From assembly GCF_964355755.1 (NCBI RefSeq), contig NC_092672.1, positions 15,748,001 to 15,812,000 of the forward strand: 64,000 nt of DNA, in the 5' to 3' direction. Made by a program: the position numbers and the translations under genes. Numbering within the stretch: the first letter of the stretch is position 1; the number at the start of each line of letters is the position of its first letter. The stretch comes from Antedon mediterranea. Taxonomy: Eukaryota; Animalia; Echinodermata. Shown piece by piece: positions 166 to 45,974 of the stretch. Under the pieces are notes generated by a model, which was not told the DNA's origin, ran no database searches, and saw only the letters and a program-made list of their open reading frames with translations.

Positions 166-475
166 TTATGTTTCAAATATCATCTTTTTAATATTGTACT
201 TTAGCATAGGGAGCGAGGTCATGTGATTTTGTTCTAGAGTAGACTGGAGTTTATTCCAGTAAGTTGGTCCTTCAATGAAAATTGATCTTTTATTAATTTC
301 TAGTCTACTGTGTGGAATATATATCTTATTTGCGTTTCTTAATGTCTTTAAGCGATCAGTTTTAGGGTTTAAATCAATCAGGTTGTTTATAGGGATGGGA
401 AGTTCCTGGAGATGATATTTGAACATAAAGCATGCAATTTGAATTTTATTTATATCGTATATATTTAACATTTTT
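166..475 (-). pseudogene. Non-LTR retrotransposon (CR1/L2-group) ORF2 C-terminal fragment
   Basis: Translation LNIYDINKIQIACFMFKY...SIFIEGPTYWNKL resembles the post-RT tail of L2/Crack-type LINEs (G..WN.L motif). Confidence 0.55.
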
Positions 476-899
476 AAACTTTGTAATACATTGTAGTATA
501 TTGTATATAAAATTAGTGGCCATTTTGAAAAATGGCCGTCATTTCTATTTTAAGCAACAGTGTCAACAAGGCCTAATGGATTCCGTGTCTGAAGTACAGG
601 GCTTAGAGTGATCAAAAGGGATTAATTAGGATATCTGGCTATGTTGACTGCCTCTAACATTCCACTCCCCCTATAACTTGATTTCTAAGCATCTTTTCAG
701 ATTTTTTTTTTGTCCTATTTTAAACACGATCACCCAAGATAGTAATAGTAACTAATCAAACTATTTTAAATCGTCTTTATATTTTACAAAAGAAAGCACT
801 AAAGAATTGTTTGCAACGTTCCTTTTCATCATCCTTCTCTACCAATCTTTGCCCGCACACAAAGATTAAAATTATCTGAGCTGTACCAAAAAAAATGTT

Positions 900-1210
900 G
901 CGATACTTATGTTTAAGTTTCATCATAAGAAGTTGCCTATTACTTTTGATTCTTTCTTTGCTACAAACAATTCCAAACATAATTATGAGACCAGGGCTAA
1001 AGACAATTTAAGCACTGCTTTCAAAACGACCCTATTGGGCCAACAAAGTGTCGCATACAGAGGCACTTATGTGTGGAACTCACTACCCATTAATTTTTTA
1101 TATATCTATATATATATTTTTGTTATATTTATAATAATGTACACTAATTTGTTATTGAGCTATGGAGAATTTTTTTTTTCCGAAATAAAAGATGAATGAA
1201 TGAATGAATT
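900..1210 (+). mobile_element. LINE 3' end fragment (L2/Crack-like) with (TGAA)n tail
   Basis: MFKFHHKKLP...HNYETR...YRGTYVWNSLP, then AATAAA and gatgaatgaatgaatgaa at about 1183-1208. Confidence 0.6.
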
Positions 1211-2043
1211 AAAATGTCAACCAGTATTGGTCTGTTTAAACATAAAATTCATGATATGTTTGTCACCAGTTATCTTTAATTTTAAGCTACTGGTAAATTC
1301 ATTTTCTCTCGACATTTGATTTGTTATTATCACTGCATTATTTCTATTGTTAGTATTTTTATTGTTACAATTAATATGGTACATTATACTGTTTTTATGT
1401 ATTTATTTATTTAATTATTTATTAATATTTTTTTTCGTTTTAAGGGGCTTTGCATCTAAAGCATTAGCTTAAAGCAATTAACTCTATTCACAACTTCAAT
1501 TAATTTTGTATGTACTTTGTATTAATCTGAGATTGTGAATAAAGTTATATATATTTTCATAGTACTTCTAGCAGAAACAGGGTACTCAAAATACAATACT
1601 ATGTTTTTATACCATATTTTGAGGATATGCAGCAGAAACAGGCTCCATGTAAAAACTTTTAAGAATACTAAAAAAAAAAAAAATAAAATAATAAAGTGGA
1701 TTTATTTAATGATTTTGTTACAAATGCAATAATAAATTTGTTTCATGCACTCAGTAAAGTTATTTGCATTTTTATGTTGCTTGGAGGTGTGCTGTTTATA
1801 ATTAACTATTGATTGAATTAATTATACAATTTTAATAGTAATGCTGCAACATATAATTTTGCATAACAATTAAACATTATCTTCTTTTTATATAATAAAA
1901 TTAGTTTATTCTATACCATCTGTGTCTTGACAACAATGAGGCTGATTGCAATTCATATTTTGCTGCTGTTTTTCATGAATTTGTAATTTATTAGCTTTCA
2001 GTGTACTTGTCATAATTTCTTTGATAAAATTTAAAATGATAAA

Positions 2044-2342
2044 TAAATAATAATAATATCCTGGATTTATATAGCGCATAATGTTGTGAAAACTCTAAGC
2101 GCTAAACATTATTACCCCAGTCATTTTTTCCTGATCAAACACGTATGGAAACATACTCCCATAATGCATCTAGTAATCAGTGCAAAGTTGTGTCTTGATC
2201 TAACTGGGTTCCCATTTATACACTTGGGTGAAGAGAGGCAAACGTAAGTAAAGTTTCTTGCCTAAGGATACAAGCAATGCGGCGAGAGTTGGATTCGAAC
2301 CTCGATCTCACGGTCAGTAGTCGAATGTGCAACACGCCCTCA
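2044..2342 (-). mobile_element. tRNA-derived SINE
   Basis: Minus strand has a B-box (GGTTCGAATCC), a central CCTTAGGCAAG motif, an L2-type tail GCGCTATATAAAT and a (TAT)n end. Confidence 0.65.
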
Positions 2343-3210
2343 CATTAAAGACATATTTATGTCTTGCTTAAAATTGTAATGTAAATACAGATAAGCTCTA
2401 TATTATATATAAAAAAGAATGTACTTTAATAATTTGAAGAAATATACACTTTGACCAAAAACTGGATTGAGAAAAAAAATGTTTAACTGAAAAAACTGTA
2501 ATTTAAAGAAAAAATTGTTAAATTTAATCGGAGTTAATTGTTTTTTTTTTAAATTTAATAGCTTATTTTGTATTTTTACAGGTGAAAACATTATTTTTTA
2601 AAAGTTTTTTTCCTACAGAAGGAACCATATTTCATAGCTGTAATATTAAAATTTATCCCATCTAATATTAATGCTACTAAATTGTTCGCGTATTTTATGT
2701 ATCTCCTCCAAAACCACTGAAGGGTACGTGCTCACATTTGGCACACTGATGTTTGTTGATGGGCTGCACACAATAGGCTATGTCACTTTCCTGAATTTTA
2801 AGGATAAATACGAAAAAAAGCAACAAATAGCAGTAATTTGACGTCTCAGTGACCATGTTATGTCACTGTATAAACTACGCAACCTCCTTGATTGAGATCT
2901 GTTGTGTACTGCTATGGTCGGATCTACAAATACCAGGCCGGGCCACAAAATAGTCTTTAGTCAACCGAATTAAATGATCGCGTCGTTGAAGGTATAATGA
3001 TTTTCGTAAATCGTAGCCAGTATCCAATACAATGCTTAGTATATTCGAGTTTAAATCTGCGACAAGATAATCATTATGTATCACCGCTTGAAGCTAAAAA
3101 TCAAAACTAGACCACAATGTAATTACTAGAAAAAAAGATACGATACCTCACACAAAAAATTTGCAAAATATAAAAAACCATGAAATAAAAAAAATGTAAA
3201 CGAACAAAAA

Positions 3211-3214
<4 letters not shown>

Positions 3215-3243
<29 letters not shown>
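3215..3243. repeat. (AC)n microsatellite
   Basis: Direct reading. Confidence 0.95.
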
Positions 3244-3245
<2 letters not shown>

Positions 3246-3674
3246 AAATATTGTGTTTCTGCTGAATATCAAATATCAACGAAAAATACACCCAAAATGT
3301 AAAAGTTTGTGTCTGAGCGCATCGAGTCTAATTTCAACGTGCATGTCCCTCTCATGCACGTTGTCACTTTTTGGGGCGCACCCTAGATTAATATTCACAC
3401 AGCACAAAGTCCCATATCCAGTATTGCTTTCATTTTGTAGCATACAGATATTTAAGTAAAGGAATACTTTGTGTATAGGAAAATCAATGGCCGTGAATAG
3501 TTCCGAATTGTATTCTTGAACATTTTTTTTTTTTATAAATAATTTGTCAGGGGCTTTTATTACTTAATCATGCCATAAGAATTATTATACAGGCAATGCA
3601 GACAAATCGTGCGGAGCAAATAGGTAACACATCTCCCATACAAAAAAAATTGCAAACTAGATTTAATTCTACAC

Positions 3675-4814
3675 GTGACAGACATAATGGAGCTCCTCGG
3701 TTTAATTGTGAACAAAACCTATTTCTCGTTCAATGGTAACATTTATAGGCAAATACAAGGCATTGCTATGGGAAGCCCAATAAGTCCTATATTGGCAAAC
3801 TTGTATCTAGAGTGGCTCGAACATCAAGCCATAAACACGGCACCCACTAACATCAAGCCTGTGTATTGGAAACGATACGTTGACGATGTATTAGCTATCA
3901 TCCCCACAGGTACAGTACATACATTTAACACACATCTTAATAACATCGATATAACTGACAACATCAAATTCACCACAGAATCCATGACAAACAACACAAT
4001 ACCTTTCCTGGACATGCTCATCACACTCAATGACAACGGAACAGTTACCACCTCAGTCTATCGGAAGCCCACTCACACAGACCAATATTTACATTTCAAC
4101 TCACATCATCCACTCGAACACAAACTGGGGCTTATAAACACGCTTGTGGACAGAACTGAGAAGGTAGTGGGAGATATGGATTTGAGGAAAGTTGAGATGG
4201 ATAACATCAAGAAAGCGTTACACAACTGCCAGTATCCAGAGTGGTCCTTCCAGAGAGTTATGGAAAACCGATGAAGAAAAAAGAACAAATGACACGAACC
4301 ACAGATAAGATCAAGATGAGACGTAGCATAGGAATCCCCTATGTAAAAGGAATGGCAGAAAGAATATGACGCACTCTCTCCTATCACAATGTCGGAACCT
4401 ATTTCCTACCCCAAAATAAAATCAAGAATGGCATCGTCCACCCAAAAGATAAAATCGAGAAGATGGATACATGTGGAGTAATCTACGAAGTCACCTGCCG
4501 CAACTGTCCACAAGTATACATTGGGGAAACAGGGAGGGCATTAAACACAAATTAATGATCACAAAAAAGATGTTACAACAAACACGGGGGGAGTAATGAC
4601 TAGGGCCTCCAGAACATCCACATCATCGATCATACACAAATCTGCCATTACAGAACATGTCATAAAACACAATCATGTACCGAACTGGGAGGCGACCATC
4701 TTAACCAAAGAGCCTAAACGCAAAGACAGACAGATTAGAGAATCATTACATATAAGGAGAAATAAGGAGAAGACCATGAACCGGGACACTGGAGCCCACG
4801 AACTCTCGCATTAG
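3675..4814 (+). pseudogene. PLE reverse transcriptase + GIY-YIG endonuclease, frameshifted
   Basis: GIAMGSPISPILANLY, RYVDD, PFLD, VYRKPTHTDQYLHFNSHHP; GVIYEVTCRNCPQVYIGETGR at about 4474-4537; SAITEH...RQIRESLHIR...MNRD. Confidence 0.9.
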
Positions 4815-4934
4815 TACAATGATTTGATAGACACATCACCTGGCCGAGCCCCGCACAACCTCCAACCTACAACCGGAGGCGTACGACGTCATCAACAGAT
4901 GACGTCAAGCATGACCAAGCTGCATTAACACTCC

Positions 4935-20336: not shown

Positions 20337-21424
20337 GGGTGTCACGAAACCTAAGACCACGAAAGCTAAGACCCCCTAGGACCTAAGATCACGAAAGCTA
20401 AGACCCAAGACCTAAGATTACAAATTCTAAGATATACTACAGCTTAAAAACAATACTTGTTTATCCATACATAATTTTAAACACAGTAGGTTTCATTTAT
20501 TACCATAAATATAATTAAATACTACCGCAAAACATAGATAAATTTACATTATTTTCGCCCGTTGAGTAAATGTATATTTTTTTCTTTACAACAAACAAAC
20601 TTGATGGGTTGTTTGTTGGTATATATTTACTCCATTGTGTTGGTTCAGAGGATGTTTTTCTTACGCACCTGCCTTTCTTGTATTTTGACTCCAAATTTGT
20701 TGACGAACTTTATCCTGAATACCACACTTTAAAATTAGGATTTATAAGTACTTTCAGACGGAGAAACACATAAAAACAAATAAATAATCCTTTTAATTGA
20801 TGATTTTACAGACATGTTTCTTTGTATACTGTAACTCCTCGAGCTCCCCCGATGCTCAATGTTTTTGTTTCTATGGAGCGCCAGAAGAGCAACAATAATA
20901 GTACAAGTATAAAAACAGAAAGAAAACGAAACAAATCATGATTTTTAAATTAAAATTTATTTGCCAGTATTTATTTCTTCGTACTTGCATGATTATACTA
21001 TTATCATTACAATTTTAATTTTACATTGTTCCATCCACACTGTAGATGGACTCCACAGAGTTTTCAGCCCTCTATATAATTTTTGCTCTTTTGACGTTCC
21101 ATAGAAACAAAAACATTGAACATGGTGGAAGGCCTACTGCTACTGTACTGTAGGCTAGTCATGCGAAATTCGCAAACAGTGTGTGTGCGCGAGAAAAACG
21201 TCTGTAAAATGATCAATTTAAAAATGTATTTGTTACTTTTTATGTGATTCTTTTTCATAAAAGTGCCAATTCTAAGGTGTGGTATTCAGAATAAATGTTG
21301 GGAGTTAAAATACAAGGCAGGTGCGAAAGATAAATATTTGTAATCTTAGGTCTTGGGTCTTAGCTTTCGTGATCTTAGGTCTTAGGGGGTCTTAGCTTTC
21401 GTGGTCTTAGGTTTCGTGACACCC
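20337..21424. mobile_element. Foldback/MULE-like non-autonomous DNA transposon, copy 1, 10-bp TSD
   Basis: About 85-bp TIRs GGGTGTCACGAAACCTAAGACC... built from CTAAGA subrepeats; TSD TTAAGTTCAC at 20327-20336 and 21425-21434. Confidence 0.88.
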
Positions 21425-21921
21425 TTAAGTTCACTGTACATATTATATCACAGTAAAAAAAAGTACTCATGGGAAATGCTCTAACTTTTAGTGTTACTTT
21501 ATCTGTCATTTACATCAGGGAGTACATACCAATGCTCCAATACACGATGCTAAGCCAATGATGATAATGAGTTCAGAATCTGTTTGGGCTTTAGCTTATT
21601 TTTAATCCTGGTGACCAAATAAATACTATTATTTAATATTCGATACACAATTTAATTAAAGCTGCAGTCCTCCAAAAAATATATACCAATTGTTTTAGAA
21701 CTTTTAATACAGAATCTTTACTGGTCTAATGAGAAACAATTAGAACTAAAACGGCACTCTGAGAGTGCATACCGCCGCCTACTGTATAATTCACCTACAT
21801 AAGATTTTTGTGTCTTAATGCAAATTTGGTGTAATGGTTATGTAACCAGCCTTTCAACTAGCCGAATAGTTTCAGTTGACTAACAATAGAACAGCAACGC
21901 CAAAAACAAACAGGTGAATTT

Positions 21922-25705: not shown

Positions 25706-27954
25706 TTACACTGCGGAGCATTATTCCCACCTCTGTGCGTAATATATATTTAAGAAAAACATATGGTATTTTAATAAATTGCAAAAAAATATTAATTGAG
25801 ATAATTGTGTAATTATTTTTGTGGTGTGTGATGGGCAAAGGGTTAGTCTACAGTTAGGTATAAAAAAAAAAGTAATTTGCATATTGATGACGTCATGTGA
25901 CGTCATTACAGGTATTTTGGATTTCGTGTTTTCTATCGAATCAATGATAAAAACTATATTTTCTATAAGAAATTCTTATGGAATACGTTTTTCCAACTGG
26001 ATATTAATGAAGATACGTACAAAAAAAAAAAAAAAAAAAATTGAATTATTTTTATTGTTTTATAAAAATTATTCACAAATCAAAATTTTGGGGCAAAATC
26101 ATGAAAATAATGACATTTTACAAAAATTCACTATAGTACAAAAACTAACTATTGTTTCAGAATTTTTTTTTTTGCGTGTTGTGATAAACACAATGTTGCC
26201 CTACTGGGGCTGGTAAATTTTGGTTACTTTCAAAATGGCCGCCATTACGCTACTCAAAACAACTTTCCAAGATATAATACTATTAAATACTATACTATAT
26301 AATATAACTATAGAGGGCGCATTATTTTCAAGACGATAATACAACTATAGAGGGCGATTTTTTTTGCTGGAAATTTTTTTTTTATGACTTGCAAAAATAT
26401 TCAAGTCCTTCGAAAAAATATAGAGGGTATTATAGGCAAATACGATTAAATCATTGTTTTGCCCATACCCAGTATTACCGTGTATACGTATTTCAATGAC
26501 GTCTGTTTATACCCGGTAGTACCGCGGTATACGCAGTGAAAGGATGGTTAAATAAACAACTTTATATATTTTATAAAACTTTAATAACAAGTTTTATTGA
26601 TATTTCTAATGGCAATATATAAAATATATTACTAAAAAACTAAATTTTAACAAAAAATAGCATAGTTAATACAATTGTCGACTGAAGACGCAAATTGTTT
26701 ACATACTTCGTGGCCGGCTAAAAACAATCATTTCCGGCAATGTTTTAGACCCTATATTTAAAAAACTACAAGTCAGATTTTTGTAATTCTTTCTTAATTG
26801 TAATATTAATACAAAATACTAACAGATAATATTTAATTTGGTTGAAAAATAACAACTTTTAATTTTACATCGTTATCCCTATATAGACAACATGAATTAT
26901 TATATTATGCAGTCCTAGATTGATCACCATCATGTATAGGTAATGACACTAAGGTCGTGTTCGTACGGTGGTTAAAATAAGCGCTTAATTTCACCCATGC
27001 CTCGGGTTATAAATTGAGCGTTGTTCGTACTTGAAATATTTAACCGCTTATAAATGCTTAATCAATGAATCACAAACCGGAAATTACGTTTTAAGGTCAG
27101 TTGTCTTTACAACCTACGACCCCATTTTCGCACGCTAGTTTCGTGTTGTATATTTTTTACTCGCGATCTTTCTTTACAATAACAATTACTTGCTACCTTT
27201 TACACTGCTTATCCTTGCGACAAACCTTATGCCTCTTAACGCCGATAATCTTGCCGAAATATGCCTTCTCCTGACGACCATTATTTTACTCCTTGACGAA
27301 GAATTTGAGCCCAATGTAACACGAAACACCACCCATGTAGACCAGCTAGGCCTACTAAGCGGTCTACACCAACAAGGACAGCACCAGCTGACGATCGCTC
27401 TCGAAGCGTGTATGGAAGAGCTTCGTAGGAGAAATGACGGGCCTAGGCAGCGAACGTTTGTCAAAATTTGACACATTGCCTCTATCGGAGATTTATTATC
27501 CTCGGAGGCCGAGTATAATTGGATTATCGCTGAAATAACCTGCAAATTTGGTGAACATTTTGCCTCGAATTTTTTGTAGCCTGAGGCAAAAGTTAATTGG
27601 ATCACGCGAACGGAAATCGGGAATAAGCTGGTATTTTCAACCCCTACGAACAGGCCCTAATTTTGTCAGCAAATTGGCAATTCCTGTCCTCCCCGAATTC
27701 AAAATACTGGAATCGCTACTGTTCCCAGCCACTGTCCACATAACATTCAATCTTCTCGGGCATAACACATTGCCTACTCCATACCTCAACTGCCCAGCAT
27801 TCTGTCCATTTGTCGTGCTTGCATACCTGCTGCACAATTCCCCTATGGAAAACAGTTTTAGTCTACTCCATATTCAGGCCTAAACTTCCTCCATGTCTAC
27901 TCCCCTCAGCCCTGCTCTCAGCCATCTCCCTCTTCTCCCCATGCCTTCCCAGTA

Positions 27955-29030
27955 GGGTGTCACGAAACCTAAGACCACGAAAGCTAAGACCCCCTAAGAC
28001 CTAAGATCACGAAAGCTAAGACTCAAGACCTAAGATTACAAATATTTATCTTTCGCACCTGCCTTGTATTTTAACTCCCAACATTTATTCTGAATACCAC
28101 ACCTTAGAATTGGCACTTTCATGAAAAAGAATCACATAAAAAGTAACAAATACATTTTTAAGTTGATGATTTTACAGACGTTTTTCTCGTACACAAAATG
28201 ACTAGCCTACAGACAGTATAGTACACTAGTAGGCCTACCCGGCATGTTCAATGTTTTTGTTTCTATGGAACGTCAAAAGAGCAAAAATTATATAGAGGGC
28301 TGAAAACTCTGTGGAGTCCATCTACATAAACAATGTAAAATTAAAATTGTAATGATAATAGTATAATCATGCAAGTACAAAGAAATAAATACTGGCAAAT
28401 AAATTTTAACTTAAAAATCAATCAAGTTTTTTTGTTTCGTTTTCTTTCTGTTTTTATACTTGTACTATTATTGTTGCTCTTTTGGCGCGCCATAGAAACA
28501 AAAACATTGAGCGGGGAGCTCGAGGAGTTACATTACAGTATACAAAGAAACACGCCTGTAAAATCATCAATTTAAAGGATTTATTTATTTGTTATTATGT
28601 GTTTCTCCTTCTAAAAGTACTTATAAGTCCTAATTTTAAAGTGTGGTATTCAGGATAAAGTTAGTCAACAAATTTGGAGTCAAAATACAAGAAAGGCAGG
28701 TGCGTAAGAAAAACATCCTCTGAACCAACACATTGGAGTAAATATATACCAACAAACAACCCGTCAAGTTTGTTTGTTGTAAAGAAAAAATATACATCTA
28801 CTCAACGGGCGAAAATAATGTGAGTTTATCTATGTTTTTCGGTAGTATTAAATTATATTTATGGTAATAAATGAAACCTACTGTGTTTAAAATTATGTAT
28901 GGATAAACAAGTATTGTTTTTAAGCTGTAGTATATCTTAGAATTTGTAATATTAGGTCTTGGGTCTTAGCTTTTGTGATCTTAGGTCTTAGGGGGTCTTA
29001 GCTTTCGTGGTCTTAGGTTTCGTGACACCC
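27955..29030. mobile_element. Foldback/MULE-like non-autonomous DNA transposon, copy 2 (inverted relative to copy 1), 10-bp TSD
   Basis: Same TIRs as 20337-21424; TSD CTTCCCAGTA at 27945-27954 and 29031-29040. Confidence 0.88.
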
Positions 29031-30870: not shown

Positions 30871-30877
30871 CTGAATT

Positions 30878-31090
30878 GTCGTGAGGTGGTTTCCCGAAAG
30901 ATCGTAAAATCAAAACGGTACTGGGTATGACCAACTAGCGTTATTGTCACCGGCTAGTCATCCATTCATAGAAGTACTAATGTAGTAGCCTACCTGTACG
31001 GTGACCATAGAATGTGACCCGAGGCATGACTAACTACGACTTTTAGATGATAGAAAGTTGAGAAAAATTGTTACGAGTAGTTTTACGACA
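30878..31090 (-). repeat. 3' pseudo-LTR of the EN-minus PLE
   Basis: Matches 35039-35251 base for base by eye (offset 4161). Confidence 0.9.
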
Positions 31091-31279
31091 TGAAGATGTT
31101 TATGAAATTATGTTAAAGATGTAAAAACATATTACATTGGTATATAAACAGTAATGAGTGTTAGTAAAAATAATATAATGTAAAAAAGATATAAGGAAGA
31201 AAAGCAAAGAGATTATGGAGCGGCTGTACCTGAATATACAATATAAATATTGTAAGGTTAAAAACTAGAAATTTAGGCG

Positions 31280-32262: not shown

Positions 32263-34757
32263 TTAATATGTTTGATAGGTTGCCAGTTTGTTGTGCAATT
32301 GTTTATTAGTGCAGCATATTTGTTTAATCTTTCTGTCGTTATAAAAAACGTATTGTATTTTATACTTGTTTTTGAGTAGGTGTTTGTGGTTATTTATAAT
32401 ACCTTGCATAATATTTGTTTTATCTGTGGTTTTATCAAATTTGGTTTTAATACAAATTGTTTGTTTATTAATATTCTTTGTAATCTTTTCTTTGGGGTTC
32501 TGTTGAAAATGTGTCAAATGTTTATTTATGAATTTATGGCTGTAACCTATTTTCTTTAGTCGTAAAGAGAAGAGGGAGGTGATGTGTAGATATTCTTTTA
32601 TATTACATGAAAGTCGGTTATAACGATGGGACTCTGTTTTGATAATACCTTTAAAAATTGATGGGTTATGGTTGGATGTTTTATGAATGTATGTATATTT
32701 TTGGTATGGTTTTTGATATATTGAGTAGTGTATTTTGTTTGTTGTTAGTGTTGTATAGTTGATGGAAATGTGTGTGTCCAAATATATCATGTTAGTAGTA
32801 TTAAAAGTAAAGTTGAGTGGAATATTGTGTGGGTAGATGTTGGATATGGATTTAATAAGGTCAAGAGAATTAATTTTAGGGTTGCTGATAATTAGTGCGC
32901 CGTCGTCTATGAATCGGGTAAATAAGAAGTTGGAAGGGTTTAGTTGAAATCTTTGTTTTAATGTGGTGAGGAAGTTTAATTCTTTCAAAAGGAGGGTAAG
33001 ATTAGCGATTTGGGCGCTGTGGTAAGACCCCATAATGATTCCCTGTATTTGCTTATATAATAAGGTCCGGCTTTGAAGTATGCGTTTTTATTAATTATGT
33101 TGTTTAATTTTGTGAGATATAATTTGGTTTCATTGTTAACATTTAAGAGGTCGCAGGCATTTGTGATGGTGTCATTGGTATCTTGTATAGTGATGTTAGT
33201 GTAAAGGCTTTCGAAGTCCCAGGAAATAAAGAAATTTGTGTCGGAGAATTTTGTGTTAATTAATTGTGTTTTGGAAACAAATTCGTTTGAGTTTTCAATA
33301 ATGGGAAAGGGTACATTTTTGTCATAGAACATATCTTTAATTTTGTTTAAAATTAATTTAAGATGGTGGCCTAGTGTTTTGGATAGGGGGGTAGTAGTCC
33401 AGCTATGGGCTGTAATAATTGGTCGTCCTTTAAGGTCTTGTTCTGTTTCGGGTGAGGGTGGTTTTTTAAGTTTATGGGGTTTGGGTAGAATCTTGAGGGT
33501 AGGTAATTGTAATTTGGAGTTATCGATCCAGTTTATAATTTGGTTGATTTCTTTGATAAAATCGTGGTCTTTGATGTCTGTATCATTAATTAGTTTAATC
33601 ATGTCATTTCGAACTTTAAGTTTTAATTTTGTTATATAATTTCTTTCATCAATTTTAGGATCGACTTTTTGATATATTTCGTTGTTAAGTTGTCTATCAT
33701 ATTCTTGTTTGTACCATTTTGTAGTATTAAGGCATAAACCTAAATTCTTGTCTGATGTTTGTATTATTATTTCTGGGTTTTTGGCAAGTGTTTTCAATTG
33801 TTTGAGTTGTGATTTAGTTGTATTTCTTTTATCTATACATCTAAAATTTTCGATGCATTCTTGGTTTAGTTCTTCGATATTGTTGTAGCAGAAAGCAGTT
33901 GTGTTTGGTTTAATGTGAGGATGTGTAATTAATTCATGGAAAAGTGTTTTGTGTTTATTACGTATAGGCAATGAGTGTGGTTTAGTGTGAGTTGTTTTGA
34001 TTTTATGCTTGTAAATGTCATGTTTCAACATTGTTGTAAAGGAGGACTTCATATCGTTATGTAGTTCTGTTTTAATCTGCTGTCCGTTCTTGAAGGTTGT
34101 GGGTATAAACGATGGTCCCTTGTTCAATATTGTTTTGGTGTGTTTATTGATTTTAAAGTTAGTAAAATTGTGGAAGTTCAAATCATCTTTCTTGTTTTCG
34201 TTTCTAATTTCGTCTTCCTTCTTTTTAGCATCATAGTTTTTCATAAGTTTTTTAATTAGTATTGTGTGCAAAACACTTCTCTGTTGACATAAATTATTTG
34301 CATAGTCAAAATCTGAGGTGGTTTTTTTAAAAACGTATTTCTTATTAATTGCATTCTTCTGTTTAATTTCTTCGATTGTATCTTTATATTTCTGTAAGAT
34401 ACTTTGTTTCAAGAGTTGTGTTTGTCGGTATCTATGTTTAATAATATCGCTCAATTCTTCCAATGTGTTAATATTGTCGCTCAATTCGGTGTCCTCAATA
34501 CTTTCCCCGGTATTTATATTAATGGTATAATTCCTGATTTGGCTGATTTTGTTGTCAACGAATTTTATTTCTACGTTATGGTTGTTGTTTATTTTGAGTA
34601 GGCTAGGTGTCAGTTGTTCTATTTTGTTATAATATCGACTACAGTTAATTATTTCTTCTCTGAAAATATTTTTAGTCGTCTTGGTAGGTATCCTATTCCA
34701 TTCGTTGATTGTTGTAATTTTCCTAATATCTTTTGGTTTAAATGTTGGATGAACCAT
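32263..34757 (-). CDS. PLE reverse transcriptase of about 830 aa, split by one frameshift near 33055
   Basis: KGPSFIPT, SDKNLGL, LPKPHK, KGRPII..HSWTTTPLSK, SWDFESLYTNI, then after the shift KQIQGIIMGSYHSAQIANL, RFIDD, IYLD, YQKPYQKYTYIHKTSNH, GIIKTESHRY. No nuclease motif follows. Confidence 0.85.
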
Positions 34758-35038
34758 ATTCTGTGGGTGTTTAAATAGTTATGTAATATTAAGCTTAAAA
34801 TAATTATTGTGTGTTGAAAAATTATATTGTGAAACATGATGTTTATGCTATGAATGTCGTACGTAGGTAAAGGAATAGAAAAAACAAGGATCTAAATGTA
34901 GAAAAATGAAAAAAGTAGTATAGAATGTAGAAATAGGAAAAGTTTGTTAATAAAAAGAATAGATTTTGAATGTGAGGAATGACTTATGACGGTTAGATCC
35001 CACTAGAGATCTATGTCGGCTCCTAGGCCTGTATAATC

Positions 35039-35251
35039 GTCGTGAGGTGGTTTCCCGAAAGATCGTAAAATCAAAACGGTACTGGGTATGACCAACTAGC
35101 GTTATTGTCACCGGCTAGTCATCCATTCATAGAAGTACTAATGTAGTAGCCTACCTGTACGGTGACCATAGAATGTGACCCGAGGCATGACTAACTACGA
35201 CTTTTAGATGATAGAAAGTTGAGAAAAATTGTTACGAGTAGTTTTACGACA
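35039..35251 (-). repeat. 5' pseudo-LTR of the EN-minus PLE
   Basis: Identical to 30878-31090. Confidence 0.9.
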
Positions 35252-35283
35252 CACACTATTTGTATGCCTAGTGTGTAAACATT

Positions 35284-35525
35284 ATTGACATAATTTCATA
35301 AAGATCTTCATGTCGTACAACTACTCGTAACATTTTTTCTCAACTTCCTATCATCTAAAGTCGTAGTTAGTCATGCCTCGGGTCACATTCTATGGTCTCC
35401 GTACCGGTAGGCTACTACATCAGTACTTCTATGAATGGATGACTAGCCGGTGACAATAACGCTAGTTGGTCATACACAGTACCGTTTTTGATTTTACGAT
35501 CATTCGGGAAACCACCTCACGACGA
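35284..35525 (+). repeat. Inverted, slightly diverged pseudo-LTR copy
   Basis: Reverse complement matches 30878 to about 31115 with several substitutions (e.g. CGGAGACC vs CGGTGACC). Confidence 0.85.
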
Positions 35526-38378: not shown

Positions 38379-38701
38379 AAATCATCATTTAATAATGAAG
38401 GAACAATAATTTTCATCAAAATCTTACATCAAAAAGTCGAAATATTGCTTGTTTAATATCTAAATCATCAATCTGAGTCAATAAAATCGACAACAAGCAT
38501 TGTGTTTAAAAAAGCGACCAGATTTTTTATCAAATACATTTTTGTAATAGTTGTCACGAACTCCGTTTACATAAAATATGTTTATCAGCCATATTTTAAA
38601 TCTGGATGAGGGTCTTGTTACTTGCTAATCAAAGTTACCGAGACGTTCACAAGTCTACTGTTCCAAATATAATAATGTACTGTTCTTAAAACAATGGATG
38701 T

Positions 38702-39082
38702 TGTTAGTGACGCAACGCTTTATTTCTGCTATGTTAAACTGCACCTGACATAATATGTAAATTTCCCGTTCTTTTGTTTCTATTATTCCCTTTTACTGTG
38801 CTGCGCTTGTCGTTGTAATCCTATGCATACCTTTGTATTACACCAGAAAGGCCAGTGATGTAAGTTCATTATTTGCTTCCTTTGATTACTCTCTTTAGCT
38901 TAGTTTAGGCTTAATACCATTTCTATATTTTGCTAATTTAACCTGGATACATTGTAGTTCTTTATTGTATTATTTTGTTACATTTTCAGTTTGAACCACA
39001 ATAAATCAATTGTGAAGTGCAAAACCTGGTTGGAAGTTTTTTTGTTGTATACCGATTAACGTACGACGCTACGAGCGTTACA
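38702..39082 (+). repeat. BEL 5' LTR (381 bp) with candidate intron 38860-38989
   Basis: TGTTAGTGAC...GCGTTACA; GAT|GTAAGT donor, TTTTCAG|TTT acceptor and AATAAA at about 39000. Confidence 0.93.
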
Positions 39083-39096
39083 GTTCAAAATCAAGA

Positions 39097-41798
39097 ATGT
39101 CTCATACAGAATCTGAGGTTGCACGTATGAAGTCTAAGCGTGGATACGCTAGGGGAGCTGTTACCCGAATTATGGGTACCGTGCAGAAATTGATGGCAAG
39201 AAAGGAAAACCTTTCCCAAGTCCATGAACGAATGGAGGAGGTGGGAACCTTGACGGAAGCGTTTGCAGCTGCACATGCAGACTATGTAATGTTGTTAAAG
39301 GATGAGGAGGCCAAGCAGGAAGCGGAGGTTTATCGGAGAGAATTTGTCACGAGAATAAACGACTTCTGTGATGATATCGGCACATGGATCGCCAGTGTTG
39401 AGCACTCTGAGCAACATAAGTCTGTTTCGGAAGTTGGCAGCCGCTTTCACTAATTTTAACCACATAAAGTGCCTTGGATGAAGCGAGAGCTAAGGCTAGG
39501 GCGGAGAAAGCTGCACTTGAAGCTGAAATACAAGGCTTGGTGGAGCAAAAATCTTTAGAACAAGAGCAATTCAAATTGAGACGAATAAAACAGGCGCGCC
39601 AGATGGAACTTGAAACCCAGCGTTTTCAGGCCGAGATGAAATTGGCGCTAGAAGATCATCACGCAATGATTGAGATGGGAAGACAAGAGTTGGAGCTCGA
39701 TCATCGCCGTCGAGAGATGGAATTAAGTGCTAAAATGGCAAAAGCTGATGCAGTCCAGAAGGTCTACACCGAAGTTATTGAGACTGAAACTCAACCACGT
39801 TATCATTCTACACCGGAAGATTTAGTCCTACCAACTATACACCTACCTTCATTTGATGGCCGACATCTCGATGCGTCAAGGTTTGAACGCAACCCATCTA
39901 AACCCACTGAACCGATACTCCAAACACCTAAAGCAGACGATCCTTCAGTTAGAAAAAAGTCTGATTCACCAGCACTAAATACATTGCACCAACCGGAAGA
40001 ATTGTCGAATACCATATGCCAGATGTTAGCCGATTCTCGATTACACCAGCAATCTCTTGTGGAGGCTTTACATCTAACGAAAAATGAGCTACCGATGTTT
40101 GATGGTGACCCGCTGCATTACTGGTCCTTTATTAGAGCATTTGACAATGCTATAGACAGAAAATCAACGGACGATGGAGCAAAGCTTATATCCCTGTTGC
40201 AGTTTTGTACCGGAAAGGCCAAAACCTTACTACAGTGCTGTCTAATGAAGGAACCAGCTGAAGGTTATCGTCTGGCAAAAAAATTGTTAAAGGAAAGATT
40301 TGGCAATAACGACAACATAGCACAAGCCTGGATCGACAAAATAACAAAAAGAAAGAACGTTAGAGACGAACTTGACCTACAAGATTTCGCGGATGACATA
40401 AGATGTTGTCAGGAAACGTTAGAATCAATGGGATATTTAAGTGAGCTTGAAAACCGTAGAAGTCTTTGTAAGATAGCTGAGAAGTTACCAAATTATTTAA
40501 AAACACGTTGGCTAAAGAAAAATTATGATATTAAAACTAAGATGAAACAAGCTCCAAATTTAGATGACATGGTAAAATTTATCACTGCTGCTGCTGAGGA
40601 AGCAAATGATCCGATCTTTGGCAAGTTGGTTCGCAAGGATCGACGTGATAAACAGAAGCAGAATACAAGCTATAGTGCGCAGTCCATACATATTCCTTCA
40701 TCAAAAAAGCCTGAGGTACCACCTGTAAACCCACCTAAAGAAGATGAACACTGTGTATACTGTGGACATAATCACTATGTTACGTTCTGCAAATCATTCA
40801 AAGCTCTGCGGGTTAAAGACAGGCTAGCATTTGTTCAGTCGAAGCGGTTATGCGTTAATTGTTTTAAACCTGGGCACATAGGAAAGGAGTGTTTGCGTCA
40901 AATTACTTGCGACATAGATGACTGTGGTAAGAAACACAGCAAATATTTGCATATTCCACGTTACGTAACCAATTCTCCACCTAATCCACCTAACTCTTCA
41001 CCTCATCCACCTATCCCTACAGTGACTACAGCACCAACTACCACCGCCACTCCTCTGATGCAAGCGGCATTAGTTCAAGGAAACAGCAAGTTTATTCAAG
41101 CAAATCGTGAAAGGGTGGCGTTGCCGATTGTTGCCGTCCGTGTACGTGGCAAAGATCCGAATTCATATGTTGACACTTATGCTTTAATAGATACAGGCGG
41201 AACATCTAGTTACTGTACTGAGGAATTAGCTGACAGACTACAAGTGATAAGGCAGAAGTGTACGGCGGAGCTTACTACAATTGAACAGAAAAATATTTTG
41301 ATAAATACGGAGCTGATAAGCCTTAACCTGTCCAATTTAGAAAACACATACACTGCACGTATGCCACAAATAATAGTGAGACCCTCTCTCAACCTAGGCC
41401 TAGATAATCTAGCATGCCATGAAGACTTGATAAAGTGGCCTCATCTTGCCGATATACAGTTACCACCAATTCTGGACGTAGCAGAAGTTCAGCTTCTCAT
41501 TGGCCAAGATATGCCAGAACTATTGTGTCCACAAGAAGTGCGTAAAGGCAAGCCTGGCAAACCGTATGGAGTATGGACAGCTCTGGGCTGGGCAATAAAT
41601 GGCCCAATCAATAAAGATGTTAATCAGCCTCGATCAAGTCACCATGTGCAACTTAAAGCAACCTATGAACAGTCTGGTAGCTGTTGGAAGCTGAATACAA
41701 GTAATCCCAGCGCCGAAACTACCTTATCCATCAATGATCACAGGGTATTGCACATATGGGAAGACTCCATTAGTCTAAAGATGGCCACTATTCCATGA
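39097..41798 (+). pseudogene. BEL gag + aspartic protease (in-frame stop at 39451-39453)
   Basis: Coiled-coil N-terminus, FDGDPLHYWSF, three Cys/His knuckles (CVYC..H..C, CVNC....H....C, CDIDDC...H....H) and protease ALIDTGG. Confidence 0.9.
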
Positions 41799-42293
41799 AT
41801 ATTCCATTCTAGCACAGACCACCAAACCTACCTGATAATCGTCAGATGGTAGACCGTAGATTGTACCTGTTGGGTAAACGATTGTATGGGTCATCATTTT
41901 TCCACCATAGGAACCGCAGTGCGTCACGATCAGCGGGATTTACAACAACTTGGTGAAACATGCCTTACGGTTTGCCAGCCCAGAGCTGTCCATACTCCAT
42001 ACGGTTTGCCAGGCTTGCCTTTACGCACTTCTTGTGGACACAATAGTTCTGGCATATCTTGGCCAATGAGAAGCTGAACTTCTGCTACTTCCTGTACATA
42101 TCCGTAAAAATTATGAGACATTTAGTCAAGTTGAATTTAAACATCTTGTATAACTTCTATTGTACATAGTTTTAATATTGCTTTTACTTTTATTTTTCTT
42201 GTTTTTTTTTCCAAATCTGGACCTCTTGGGAGACCAGTACTTGTGTATTGAAAGAGCTATTCCAGAATAAAGAAAGATTTGTATTGTATAGTT

Positions 42294-45200
42294 CTGAAGA
42301 AAAAATACGTAACTGAAATTCATAAACTACTTGCTGATCGACACGCAGAACTTGTTCCAGAAGAAGACCTCTGCAGAGCTGACGGTTGTGTATGGTACCT
42401 CCCCATCACCCGGTGTTTAACCCCAAGAAGCCGGACAAATGCCGAATTGTCTTTGATTGTGCTGCTAGGGCAAATGGCACCTCGTTAAATGATCAGGTAC
42501 ACCAAGGACCAGATTTGACCAATAAACTAATCGGCGTCCTCCTTCGTTTCCGACTGTTGCGTTTACAGCCGATATCCAAGGCATGTTTCACCAAGTTGTT
42601 GTAAATCCCGCTGATCGTGACGCACTGCGGTTCCTATGGTGGAAAAATGATGACCCATACAACGTGCCTTTAGAGTATAGAATGACTGTTCATTTATTTG
42701 GAGGAGTTTGGAGCCCAAGTTGCGCCAATTATGCTGTTCATCGGACTGTCGAGGATAACGCAAGTGAATACAGCAATGCTGCAAGGCAGACAATTAAACG
42801 TAACTTTTACGTAGACGATTGCTTAAAGTCTGTAGCGTCTGTTGACGAAGCCATATATCTCATGAAGTTAAAAGACTATTGCAGTGTGGAGGGTTTCACC
42901 TCAACAAGTGGATGTCGAATAGCCGGGAGGTTATCTATTCTCTACCTCAAGATGAGTGGGCCACAGGATTAAAGAACATTAGTTTCGACAGCTTACCATG
43001 TGAGCGAGTCCTTGGAATGCTTTGGAATATTGAGCAAGACAAGTTCCAATACGATATTCAAGTTGCTGTTAAACCTATGACACGTCGCGGAGTGCTAAGT
43101 ATACTCAACTCTGTGTACGATCCACTTGGTTATGCAGGACCCTATGTACTGCGAGGAAAGATGATATTTCAGCAACTATGCCACTGCAAATACGACTGGG
43201 ATGATCCCATACCAACTGAGAGTGCTGATCAGTGGAATCGATGGCTCATTGACCTTCCTACTATAATGGATCTGAAAGTACCACGTTATTTTAAGCCCAT
43301 TGGGCTTCGCATCAAATCCAGCCAACTACATCATTTTGTCGACGCATCCGAAGCTGGATACGGGGCAGTAACGTATCTTAGAATGATAGATTCCTACGAT
43401 AAAAGCCATTGTAGTATTTTGATGTCCAAATCGAGACTTGCACCTTTGAATACCACAACCATCCCAAGGTTGGAGTTACCGCAGCCGTCGAAGCAATCAA
43501 GTTAGACAAGTTGTTGCTGCGTGAGCTAGAAATTCCGCTGTTGGAATCCACCTTTTGGTCGGACAGCATGATCGTTTTATGGTATATTCAAAATGATGAG
43601 CGTCGCTTCCAGACTTACGTAGCAAACCGTCTTTCGGTAATCCAGGAACATAGTTTTCCGCACCAATGGCGATACATTGACACAAAGAGTAACCCTGGAG
43701 ATGATGCATCCCGAGGTTTGACTGCAAGCAAGCTGGTTAATAACCGCAGATGGGTTAGCGGACCATCATTCCTGTGGAAAAATGAAGAAAGATGGCCAAC
43801 TCAACTTAAATGCGCAGAACTCAAAGCAAGGGCGGAAATTAAAAAATCGTCAAAAATCTACACAGTTGTGACAAATAATAACGCTGCTGTCGACCAACTC
43901 TTAAAACGATACTCTTCCTGGTACCGGCTAAAGCGAGCTGTGGCATGGATTATGCGCTTCAAAACCTTTATGTTGAAACCTGCATGCCTAATTACTGGGA
44001 AACTAACGGTAAACGAGCTTAAGAAAGCAGAAGAATCCATCATCCGGTATATTCAAACAAATAGCCTGAAGCCTGAGCAGATTAATTCGCTTAAAAGGTT
44101 GAATCCTATCCTGACAGAAGACGGTCTGTGGCGTGTGGGAGGTAGATTAGAAAAGGCAAATGTATCATACCAAACCAAGCATCAAGTGTTGCTACCAGCA
44201 AATCACCATGTTACTAAGTTAATTGTCGAACATCACCACTTGAGAACGGGTCATGCTGGAGCTGAACACACTTTGGCTGAAACCAGACTAAAGTATTGGA
44301 TTGTTCGAGGTCGCCCCACCGTGAAAGGTATCTTGTCCAAATTTATAACATGCAGGAAGTTGAGAGCAAGAACAGAAACACAAATGATGGGAAATCTTCC
44401 TGAAGCCCGGGTTAAATCAAATGAAACGCCGTTCAATAGAGTAGGTATCGACTACTTTGGACTGTTTATAATAAAAAGAGCCCGTAGCGAATTGAAAAGA
44501 TACGGATGTATCTTCACTTGCCTCGCCACTCGAGCCATTCACTTAGAGGTTTCACACACTTTGGACACCGACTCGTTCATTAATGCCTTACAACGCTTTA
44601 TTGCACGTCGGGGCGAGCCAGCCGAAATTCGCTCAGATAACGGCAGGAACTTAGTAGGTGCTCAACTGCAATTAAAGCAAGCACTTAAAGGATGGAACCA
44701 ACATAAGATAGGTGACTTCTTGCAACAAAAGGAAATCGAGTGGATATTTAATACTCCTACTGCGTCACATATGGGTGGAGCCTGGGAGAGGCAAATTCGT
44801 ACGGTGCGTTCCGTGCTGCGTGGCGTATTGGGTCAGCAGAAACTGGATGATGAAGGATTATCAACACTGATGTGCATAGTAGAAAGCATAGTGAACAGTC
44901 GTCCCATAACTAAACTTTCCAGTGATCCAGATGATCCCTCGCCCCTTACACCTAACCACCTATTGCTTATGCATGCTGGACCATCATTACCTCCTGGCAT
45001 GTTCGTTAACCAAGACTTGTATAAGCGTTGTTGGCGTCAAATTCAGTATATGGCGGACATCTTTTGGAAACGATGGTTAAGTGAATATCTTCCTGCCCTA
45101 CAACAGCGCCAGAAATGGTTAAAACCAAGAAGAAATCTACGGCAAGGGGACCTGGTTCTAATGAAAGCAGAGAACACACCTCGTTACCAATGGCCTTTAG

Positions 45201-45322
45201 GATTGATCACCAAGATTTACCCCGGCACCGACGGACGGGTTCGTTCTGTTGAAGTTAAAACCCAAACGGGTGTATATGATAGGCCAATTGTTAAAATTTG
45301 CTTACTAGAAGGATGTATGTAA
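42294..45322 (+). pseudogene. BEL pol: RT, RNase H, integrase (frameshifted)
   Basis: [83 protein letters not shown]. Confidence 0.92.
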
Positions 45323-45485
45323 TTAAATGTAGTTAGATTCAGAAAATCAGACAATTAATGATACACCATAATATTGATAAATTCTTAATTTTGCAAATCC
45401 GTGCTAAAAACATGGCACTGGGTTACTTATTATTTATTACTTGATATGAAAAATACATTATGTATACAATGTATTGGGGCCGGGG

Positions 45486-45890
45486 TGTTAGTGACGCAAC
45501 GCTTTATTTCTGCTATGTTAAACTGCACCTGACATAATATGTAAATTTCCCGTTCTTTTGTTTCTATTATTCCCTTTTACTGTGCTGCGCTTGTCGTTGT
45601 CGTTCTTTTCATTTCGTGCACGGTAATCCTATGCATACCTTTGTATTACACCAGACAGGCCAGTGATGTAAGTTTGTTATTTGCTTCCTTTCATTACTCT
45701 CTTTAGCTTAGTTTAGGCTTAATACCATTTCTACATTTTGCTAATTTAACCTGGATACATTGTAGTTCTTTATTGTATTATTTTGTTACATTTTCAGTTT
45801 GAACCACAATAAATCAATTGTGAAGTGCAAAACCTGATTGGAAGTTTTTTTGTTGTATACTGATTAACGTACGACGCTACGAGCGTTACA
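45486..45890 (+). repeat. BEL 3' LTR (405 bp) with candidate intron 45668-45797
   Basis: Near-identical to the 5' LTR with an extra 24 bp at about 45600-45623. Confidence 0.93.
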
Positions 45891-45974
45891 GATGTGTACT
45901 TACGATTAAACAAAACGTAGATCCACGGCTTCCGTAAAATATCACAGTATCGTAAGTACCGCTTCCACAAAATA

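Follow-up and report, generated by a model that had tools for sequence, protein, structure and literature searches.

A BEL/Pao retrotransposon of Antedon mediterranea with a primer binding site complementary to a splice joint in its own LTR: probable self-priming with spliced RNA

Background

The retrotransposon Tf1 uses the first 11 bases of its own RNA as a primer after RNase H cleavage (excerpts of PMC7175516), the cut falling between bases 11 and 12 (excerpts of PMC7175516 and PMC4600332). Self-priming has also been predicted, from complementarity between the LTR and the primer binding site (PBS), for the plant TAR group of Ty1/copia elements (Houba, Osr-1) and for Tcn1 (available part of PMC6317226). 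Given these predictions, the mechanism has arisen more than once. Cer7 of C. elegans, a BEL element, has been reported to encode its own tRNA-like primer. For the family to which BEL elements belong, the Belpaoviridae, the ICTV description specifies a PBS of 18 nt, for tRNA-Arg or tRNA-Gly, and describes replication as "poorly understood" (PMC8742986). In searches of the open-access literature we found no description of self-priming or of an LTR intron in BEL/Pao elements. The available portions of the Sinbad paper, of surveys of metazoan BEL/Pao, mollusc and annelid elements and of a paper on LTR structure carry no remark on either subject, and those of PMC554778, PMC3118150 and PMC6238403 contain nothing relevant on primer binding, tRNA, priming or splicing.

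Here we describe a 7.2 kb LTR retrotransposon in a 64,000-nt stretch of the Antedon mediterranea genome (the window; NC_092672.1, positions 15,748,001 to 15,812,000, assembly GCF_964355755.1), in which all coordinates below are given. The feature of interest lies in its 5' LTR. From the comparisons presented here we consider it probable that this BEL/Pao element primes itself in the manner of Tf1, with a primer that would be present only once an intron has been spliced out of the LTR.

General features of the element

The boundaries and main parts of the element are as follows:

38697..38701, no strand: left copy of the target-site duplication, GATGT, 5 bp, identical to 45891-45895
38702..39082, forward strand: 5' LTR, 381 nt, TG..CA, defined by LTR/LTR comparison
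39097..45322, forward strand: broken gag-pol of BEL/Pao type with several frame changes and matches to DUF1759, Peptidase_A17, integrase and DUF5641
41474..42662, no strand: inversion/duplication inside pol, with inverted copies 41474-41591/41975-42092 and 41882-41966/42578-42662
45476..45485, forward strand: polypurine tract, ending directly before the 3' LTR
45486..45890, forward strand: 3' LTR, 405 nt, still containing the intron (45668-45797)
45891..45895, no strand: right copy of the target-site duplication, GATGT, 5 bp

Alignment of the two LTRs gives 374 matches, 7 mismatches and one 24-nt gap; the 24 nt are missing from the 5' LTR of the window and present in the 3' LTR and in contigs of sequencing runs. 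The Pfam matches to DUF1759, Peptidase_A17 and DUF5641 are above the cut-offs and those to integrase just below. Apart from the rearrangement, gag-pol is colinear with the intact 2018-aa ORF of a relative (L002), and it shows the Pao-type order gag-protease-RT-RNase H-integrase. Owing to the frame changes and the inversion/duplication in pol, this copy cannot encode the whole polyprotein. It is dead and, being broken, records the last transposition of an ancestor.

The best match among named proteins is to one of Antedon mediterranea, with 89% in the RNase H-integrase part, followed at 52-59% by proteins of fish, a priapulid and other marine hosts. The hosts of the named relatives are echinoderms, fish, a priapulid, a coral and a mollusc. 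This agrees with the aquatic distribution described for the Sailor (Sinbad/Sparrow/Surcouf) and Suzu BEL/Pao elements in the available parts of PMC554778 and PMC6238403. The element shares with the Belpaoviridae its TG..CA LTRs, polypurine tract, Pao-type gag-pol, 5-bp target duplication and size, and differs from the family profile in having no 18-nt tRNA PBS, so that membership rests on the proteins. The ICTV description of the family therefore does not cover this clade. Judged by its proteins the element is BEL/Pao and stands outside the Tf1/sushi group, while the predicted geometry of its primer is Tf1-like.

A PBS complementary to a splice joint

The features which concern priming lie in and just downstream of the 5' LTR, all on the forward strand:

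38845..38849: predicted second helix, upstream strand, partner 39098-39102
38852..38855: CCAG spacer before the primer, predicted to be a bulge between helices or an initiator-like motif
38856..38859: predicted primer, exon-1 part, 4 nt, complement of 39090-39093
38860..38989: intron-like segment of spliceosomal type, 130 nt, GTAAGT ... pyrimidine tract, CAG, which splits the primer
38990..38996: predicted primer, exon-2 part, 7 nt, complement of 39083-39089; a cut after 38996 is predicted to leave the 3'-OH
39000..39005: AATAAA poly(A) signal, 10 nt past the acceptor
39083..39093: PBS of non-tRNA type, 11 nt, without a TGG start, adjoining the LTR end

When 38856-38859 is joined to 38990-38996 the product is the exact 11-nt complement of 39083-39093; in the unspliced LTR the longest pairing with the PBS is 7 nt. 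Since the PBS matches the exon-exon joint of the LTR intron, the element likely uses the 5' end of its own spliced RNA as the primer. The first-pass annotation had claimed both this complementarity and a PBS that is not of the TGG tRNA type, and on both points it was right; its coordinates for the 5' LTR end, PBS, donor, acceptor, 3' LTR segment and AATAAA all hold as well. A splice-site score blind to the PBS ranks 38860-38989 first among the donor/acceptor pairs of the window LTR. Of 2000 random 22-mers from the window, none attains a match of 10 nt when only the three strict junctions of this LTR are considered; if each of the 144 possible GT..AG joins is allowed, 24 attain 11 nt.

Contigs of four sequencing runs, representing three organisms, cover much of the window LTR, and the differences listed for them leave donor, acceptor and PBS untouched. 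No joint across the intron of either LTR was found in the assembled contigs of seven runs, a result which is uninformative on expression. The only joint listed in the run contigs, 45596-45641, has TT..CT ends and is not a splice. A sister family is visible in two of the runs (X2 and X8, with loose ends at 39083/45891). It has the same U5 end, followed by another PBS-like sequence that shares the first five bases and then diverges; its splice junction is not visible there.

Covariation of junction and PBS among relatives

Ninety BEL loci were collected from metagenome and MAG contigs using an alignment of 21 proteins. They comprise 28 families with a split match, 10 with a contiguous match, one TGG-type element, five repeats of counted families (L024, L029, L036, L042, L068), three loci with the acceptor side only (L004, L055, L077) and 43 unclassed loci, the last mostly without LTR or leader DNA; 47 of the 90 are classed. 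With the window element the curated set comes to 39 families, 29 split and 10 contiguous. A viral collection held no relative of the window element, and a further locus from a second genome scan (L091) was an irrelevant bacterial match and was dropped.

The covariation test which the first-pass annotation had proposed could be run on this set: junction and PBS covary across the 29 split families, which have 28 different junction sequences. The sisters L002 and L003 differ from the window at one exon-2 base, and the complementary base of the PBS is changed too. The introns measure 74-1022 nt and have GT(A/G)AG donors in 25 of 29 families. Their position within the match varies, exon 1 contributing anything from 3 to 10 nt, so that a primer requires both halves. 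A poly(A) signal, A(A/T)TAAA, lies within 60 nt past the acceptor in 16 of the split families and is absent there in 13. In one subgroup (L010, L016, L026, L029, L032, L039, L040, L051, L057) short TTAC tandem repeats occur near the LTR start.

Across all 39 families the match is 10-15 nt long, and exactly 11 nt in 24. Its distance from the LTR end is 0-4 nt in 36 families, while the matches of the other three lie 6-9 nt from the nearest CA; the LTR-proximal end of the paired stretch is AC or AT in 38. A TGG start at the PBS was found in none of the 39.

The LTR end could be fixed by LTR/LTR comparison in ten elements. With strict splice sites six of these have an own match of 11-15 nt, while cross pairs reach 7 nt at most and 0/90 attain 10 nt. 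The own match of L017 appears when the acceptor filter is dropped, L012 and L068 need no splicing for a match, and the insect-type control L086, which has a TGG PBS, shows none (best 6 nt). A second test, blind to the PBS, used 34 loci that were picked after inspection, 11 of them judged intron-less or tRNA-type. Taking the top donor/acceptor pair, an own match of at least 10 nt was obtained in 14/34 against 7/1122 cross pairs, and with the top three pairs in 21/34 against 19/1122; all 21 matches start 0-4 nt after the LTR-end dinucleotide. The blind rule was also applied to nine unseen permuted loci with a downstream ORF, where it gave three split matches and one contiguous match; three more were found by eye and two loci had none at all. 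A loose scan of the 58 loci with upstream DNA reached at least 11 nt in 23/58 own pairs against 376/3306 cross pairs, a background too high for an unconstrained junction scan to be used alone.

Six loci (L053, L060, L063, L066, L007 and L076) were searched again and gave no match at the expected place. Five of them are seemingly truncated, deleted or interrupted; the LTR and leader of L053 are apparently whole. This last locus (positions 1-480) is a more distant BEL element with 42% identity, in which neither a contiguous nor a spliced match was found.

RNA folding and a predicted second helix

In the window the duplex energy of primer and PBS is -11.3 kcal/mol for spliced RNA as against -5.6 for unspliced. 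When whole leaders were folded, the primer-PBS helix had a probability of at least 0.5 in 10 of 15 spliced RNAs and was absent (0.03 or less) in the other five; in the unspliced forms it was 0.01 or less in 14 of 15. The window itself gives a modest contrast, 0.52 spliced versus 0.34 unspliced.

In 24 of the 39 families four nucleotides that precede the 11-mer, separated from it by a short spacer, are complementary to bases downstream of the PBS; cross pairs show such complementarity in 181 of 1482 cases (12%). The corresponding helix of the window has one mismatch (38848) in the 5' LTR and is perfect in the 3' LTR (45653-45657), and all four sequencing runs carry the 3' LTR base at this position. 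CA(A/G) is present in the spacer of 19 families out of the 39, the background being 8%. The simplest reading of spacer and helices would be a helix-bulge-helix in the RNA, although the CA(A/G) motif just upstream of the primer could be an initiator. The first-pass annotation had proposed a tiny first exon beginning at CCAGT. Conservation of the CA(A/G) motif is compatible with it, but a second helix upstream of CCAGT would place the RNA start further upstream, which makes the tiny exon doubtful and suggests that the first exon is longer than was guessed.

Families without an intron

The ten intron-less families have a contiguous own match of 10-12 nt, seen in only 1/132 cross pairs. Intron state was mapped on a quick tree of 41 rows, the root of which is unsure because of the long branches of L086 and L089. 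The intron-less state requires six label changes on this tree, at least four of them forced by well-supported branches; intron-less families are nested among intron-bearing lines, which fits repeated loss.

An apparent case of such loss is provided by L068 and L071, which are 99.1% identical over 5829 internal nt. The 3' LTR of L068 aligns to the L071 LTR in two pieces that omit exactly a 536-nt GT..AG segment, and this alignment continues into flanking DNA. Past the joint the identity is only 87.9%, so that this piece may derive from another subfamily copy, and the intron-less copy may be a short-read mosaic.

Comparison with known self-priming elements

As in Tf1 and the sushi group, the PBS of these elements is complementary to about 11 nt of their own LTR RNA, spliced in 29 families and contiguous in 10, and the match has the Tf1 length of 11 nt in most families. 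They differ from Tf1, Tf2 and Tj1 in belonging to the BEL/Pao superfamily, with Pao-type domains in place of a Ty3/gypsy (chromovirus-related) pol. The Tf1 primer is contiguous in the DNA and forms the first 11 nt of the RNA, whereas in the BEL elements an intron interrupts it in 29 of 39 families, and it is probably preceded by additional RNA with a second helix. Cer7 has likewise been proposed to supply its own primer, with a tRNA-like internal sequence and not with an LTR splice junction; ARAGORN detected no tRNA gene in the window or in the 27 of 90 loci scanned with it. TAR and Tcn1 are not BEL/Pao elements, and no primer intron is mentioned for them in the available part of PMC6317226.

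Proposed mechanism of priming

Splicing-dependent self-priming had been suggested in the first-pass annotation. Joint-PBS complementarity and covariation bear it out; the priming step is argued by analogy with Tf1. The transcript would begin within the 5' LTR, ahead of the donor and probably at least 10 nt before the primer, and the spliceosome would remove 38860-38989 from the cap-proximal LTR copy. The joint, the complementarity of which to 39083-39093 is exact, would then pair with it in cis, aided by the short second helix beyond the CAG/CAA spacer, for which covariation is seen and pairing predicted. By analogy with Tf1, the RNase H of the element would cut after 38996 and free a 3'-OH. 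As in standard LTR reverse transcription, minus-strand DNA would be made on 86 nt of template (39082-38997) and then be transferred to the corresponding sequence just ahead of the 3' LTR poly(A) site. During plus-strand synthesis the primer would itself be copied, so that the PBS is rewritten from the spliced joint, and this would explain the covariation of junction and PBS.

Since the sequence of both new LTRs upstream of the cut would be copied from the 3' LTR of the RNA, the 3' copy must be unspliced in the template, and it follows from the sequence that the template still held the 3' intron copy. That the 3' LTR copy stays unspliced had been part of the original claim, and it agrees with the presence of the intron in both LTRs of the window element, L064, L080 and L081. 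The 3' intron might escape if splicing is cap-dependent and restricted to the first intron, or if the poly(A) signal 10 nt past the acceptor competes with it. With the intron inside the primer, only the spliced cap-proximal LTR copy could prime; if this is true, the 3' LTR copy keeps the intron and hands it to both new LTRs. Accidental splicing of the 3' copy would yield offspring that are intron-less and still self-priming, like the ten families described above.

Alternative explanations

A chance match in an AT-rich LTR draws some support from the 24 random 22-mers that reach 11 nt when any GT..AG join is allowed. With strict sites none reaches even 10 nt, the blind test separates own from cross pairs (21/34 versus 19/1122) and the pattern recurs in 29 families; the own-versus-cross comparison refutes chance, to which we attach next to no credence. 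Priming by a host tRNA or tRNA half, such as the anticodon arm of tRNA-Gln, with the LTR match incidental, would agree with the tRNA-Arg or tRNA-Gly priming listed by ICTV (PMC8742986) and with the half-tRNA priming known in Ty1/copia groups (available part of PMC6317226). Against it, the 29 split families have 28 distinct PBS sequences, each tracking its own LTR joint and not a fixed host RNA, a diversity for which the tRNA explanation fails to account. Moreover, none of the 39 families has the TGG start, and the insect-type control, L086, has TGG and no LTR match. We regard a tRNA primer as very improbable.

The pairing of joint and PBS might be real and serve circularisation, dimerisation, strand transfer or translation control, another primer being used. 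The second helix of the window does overlap the gag start codon (39097-39102). However, in 36 of 39 families no more than 4 nt separate the match from the LTR end, which is where a primer must be, its usual length is 11 nt (24/39), the dinucleotide at its LTR-proximal end is AC or AT in all families but one, as a cut site would predict, and TGG is lacking throughout; a role in another step is accordingly judged unlikely. Somewhat less unlikely, though still not favoured by us, is a spliced primer acting in trans: a short capped LTR transcript ending at AATAAA, from any LTR including solo LTRs, would anneal to unspliced genomic RNA and be trimmed. A primer supplied in trans would explain why the intron is kept in the template, and the AATAAA lies 10 nt past the acceptor in the window, 16 of the 29 split families having a signal at a distance of 60 nt or less. 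The other 13 have no signal there, the ten intron-less families keep the geometry of the cis-priming Tf1 and Tj1, and 10 of 15 elements form the helix in cis on folding. Self-priming in cis by the spliced 5' end of the genomic RNA is the reading we prefer.

Other mobile elements observed

The window contains two more repeat structures. Inverted repeats at 20337-21425 and 27954-29030, 95-100% complementary and about 6.5 kb apart, probably belong to a DNA transposon that is young and has long terminal inverted repeats. Another mobile element is represented by minus-strand ORFs (32263-34778) flanked, at 30874-31129 and 35035-35488, by a perfect direct repeat of 217 nt together with inverted copies. 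Among the collected loci, L084 carries a separate LTR element (178-4897) with 331-nt LTRs and a post-LTR sequence without a TGG start, possibly another self-primed element. The complete TGG-type BEL element of L086 (6224-12203) is part of a contig that was deposited as a Wolbachia chromosome, and several MAG contigs (L080-L090) proved to be retrotransposons of animals; these are either host DNA in bacterial assemblies or an insertion.

Conclusions

The match between LTR joint and PBS is real, runs through a whole lineage and is strongly supported by comparison. The start of BEL/Pao reverse transcription has so far been assumed and not known, and a spliced primer would be a precise and testable answer for a large lineage. 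With it self-priming would gain a third superfamily. LTR-finders that require a tRNA PBS would miss or mislabel such elements. On present comparisons there is a good likelihood that a widespread BEL/Pao lineage of aquatic animals has handed primer synthesis to the spliceosome, being the first retroelement with a spliced primer, and has repeatedly reverted to an intron-less state. Replication through RNA normally erases introns; here an intron would be kept inside an element that replicates through RNA by being removed at one end of the RNA and retained at the other. The element would thereby offer a natural test of position-dependent splicing, and its transposition would be tied to the splicing state of the host.
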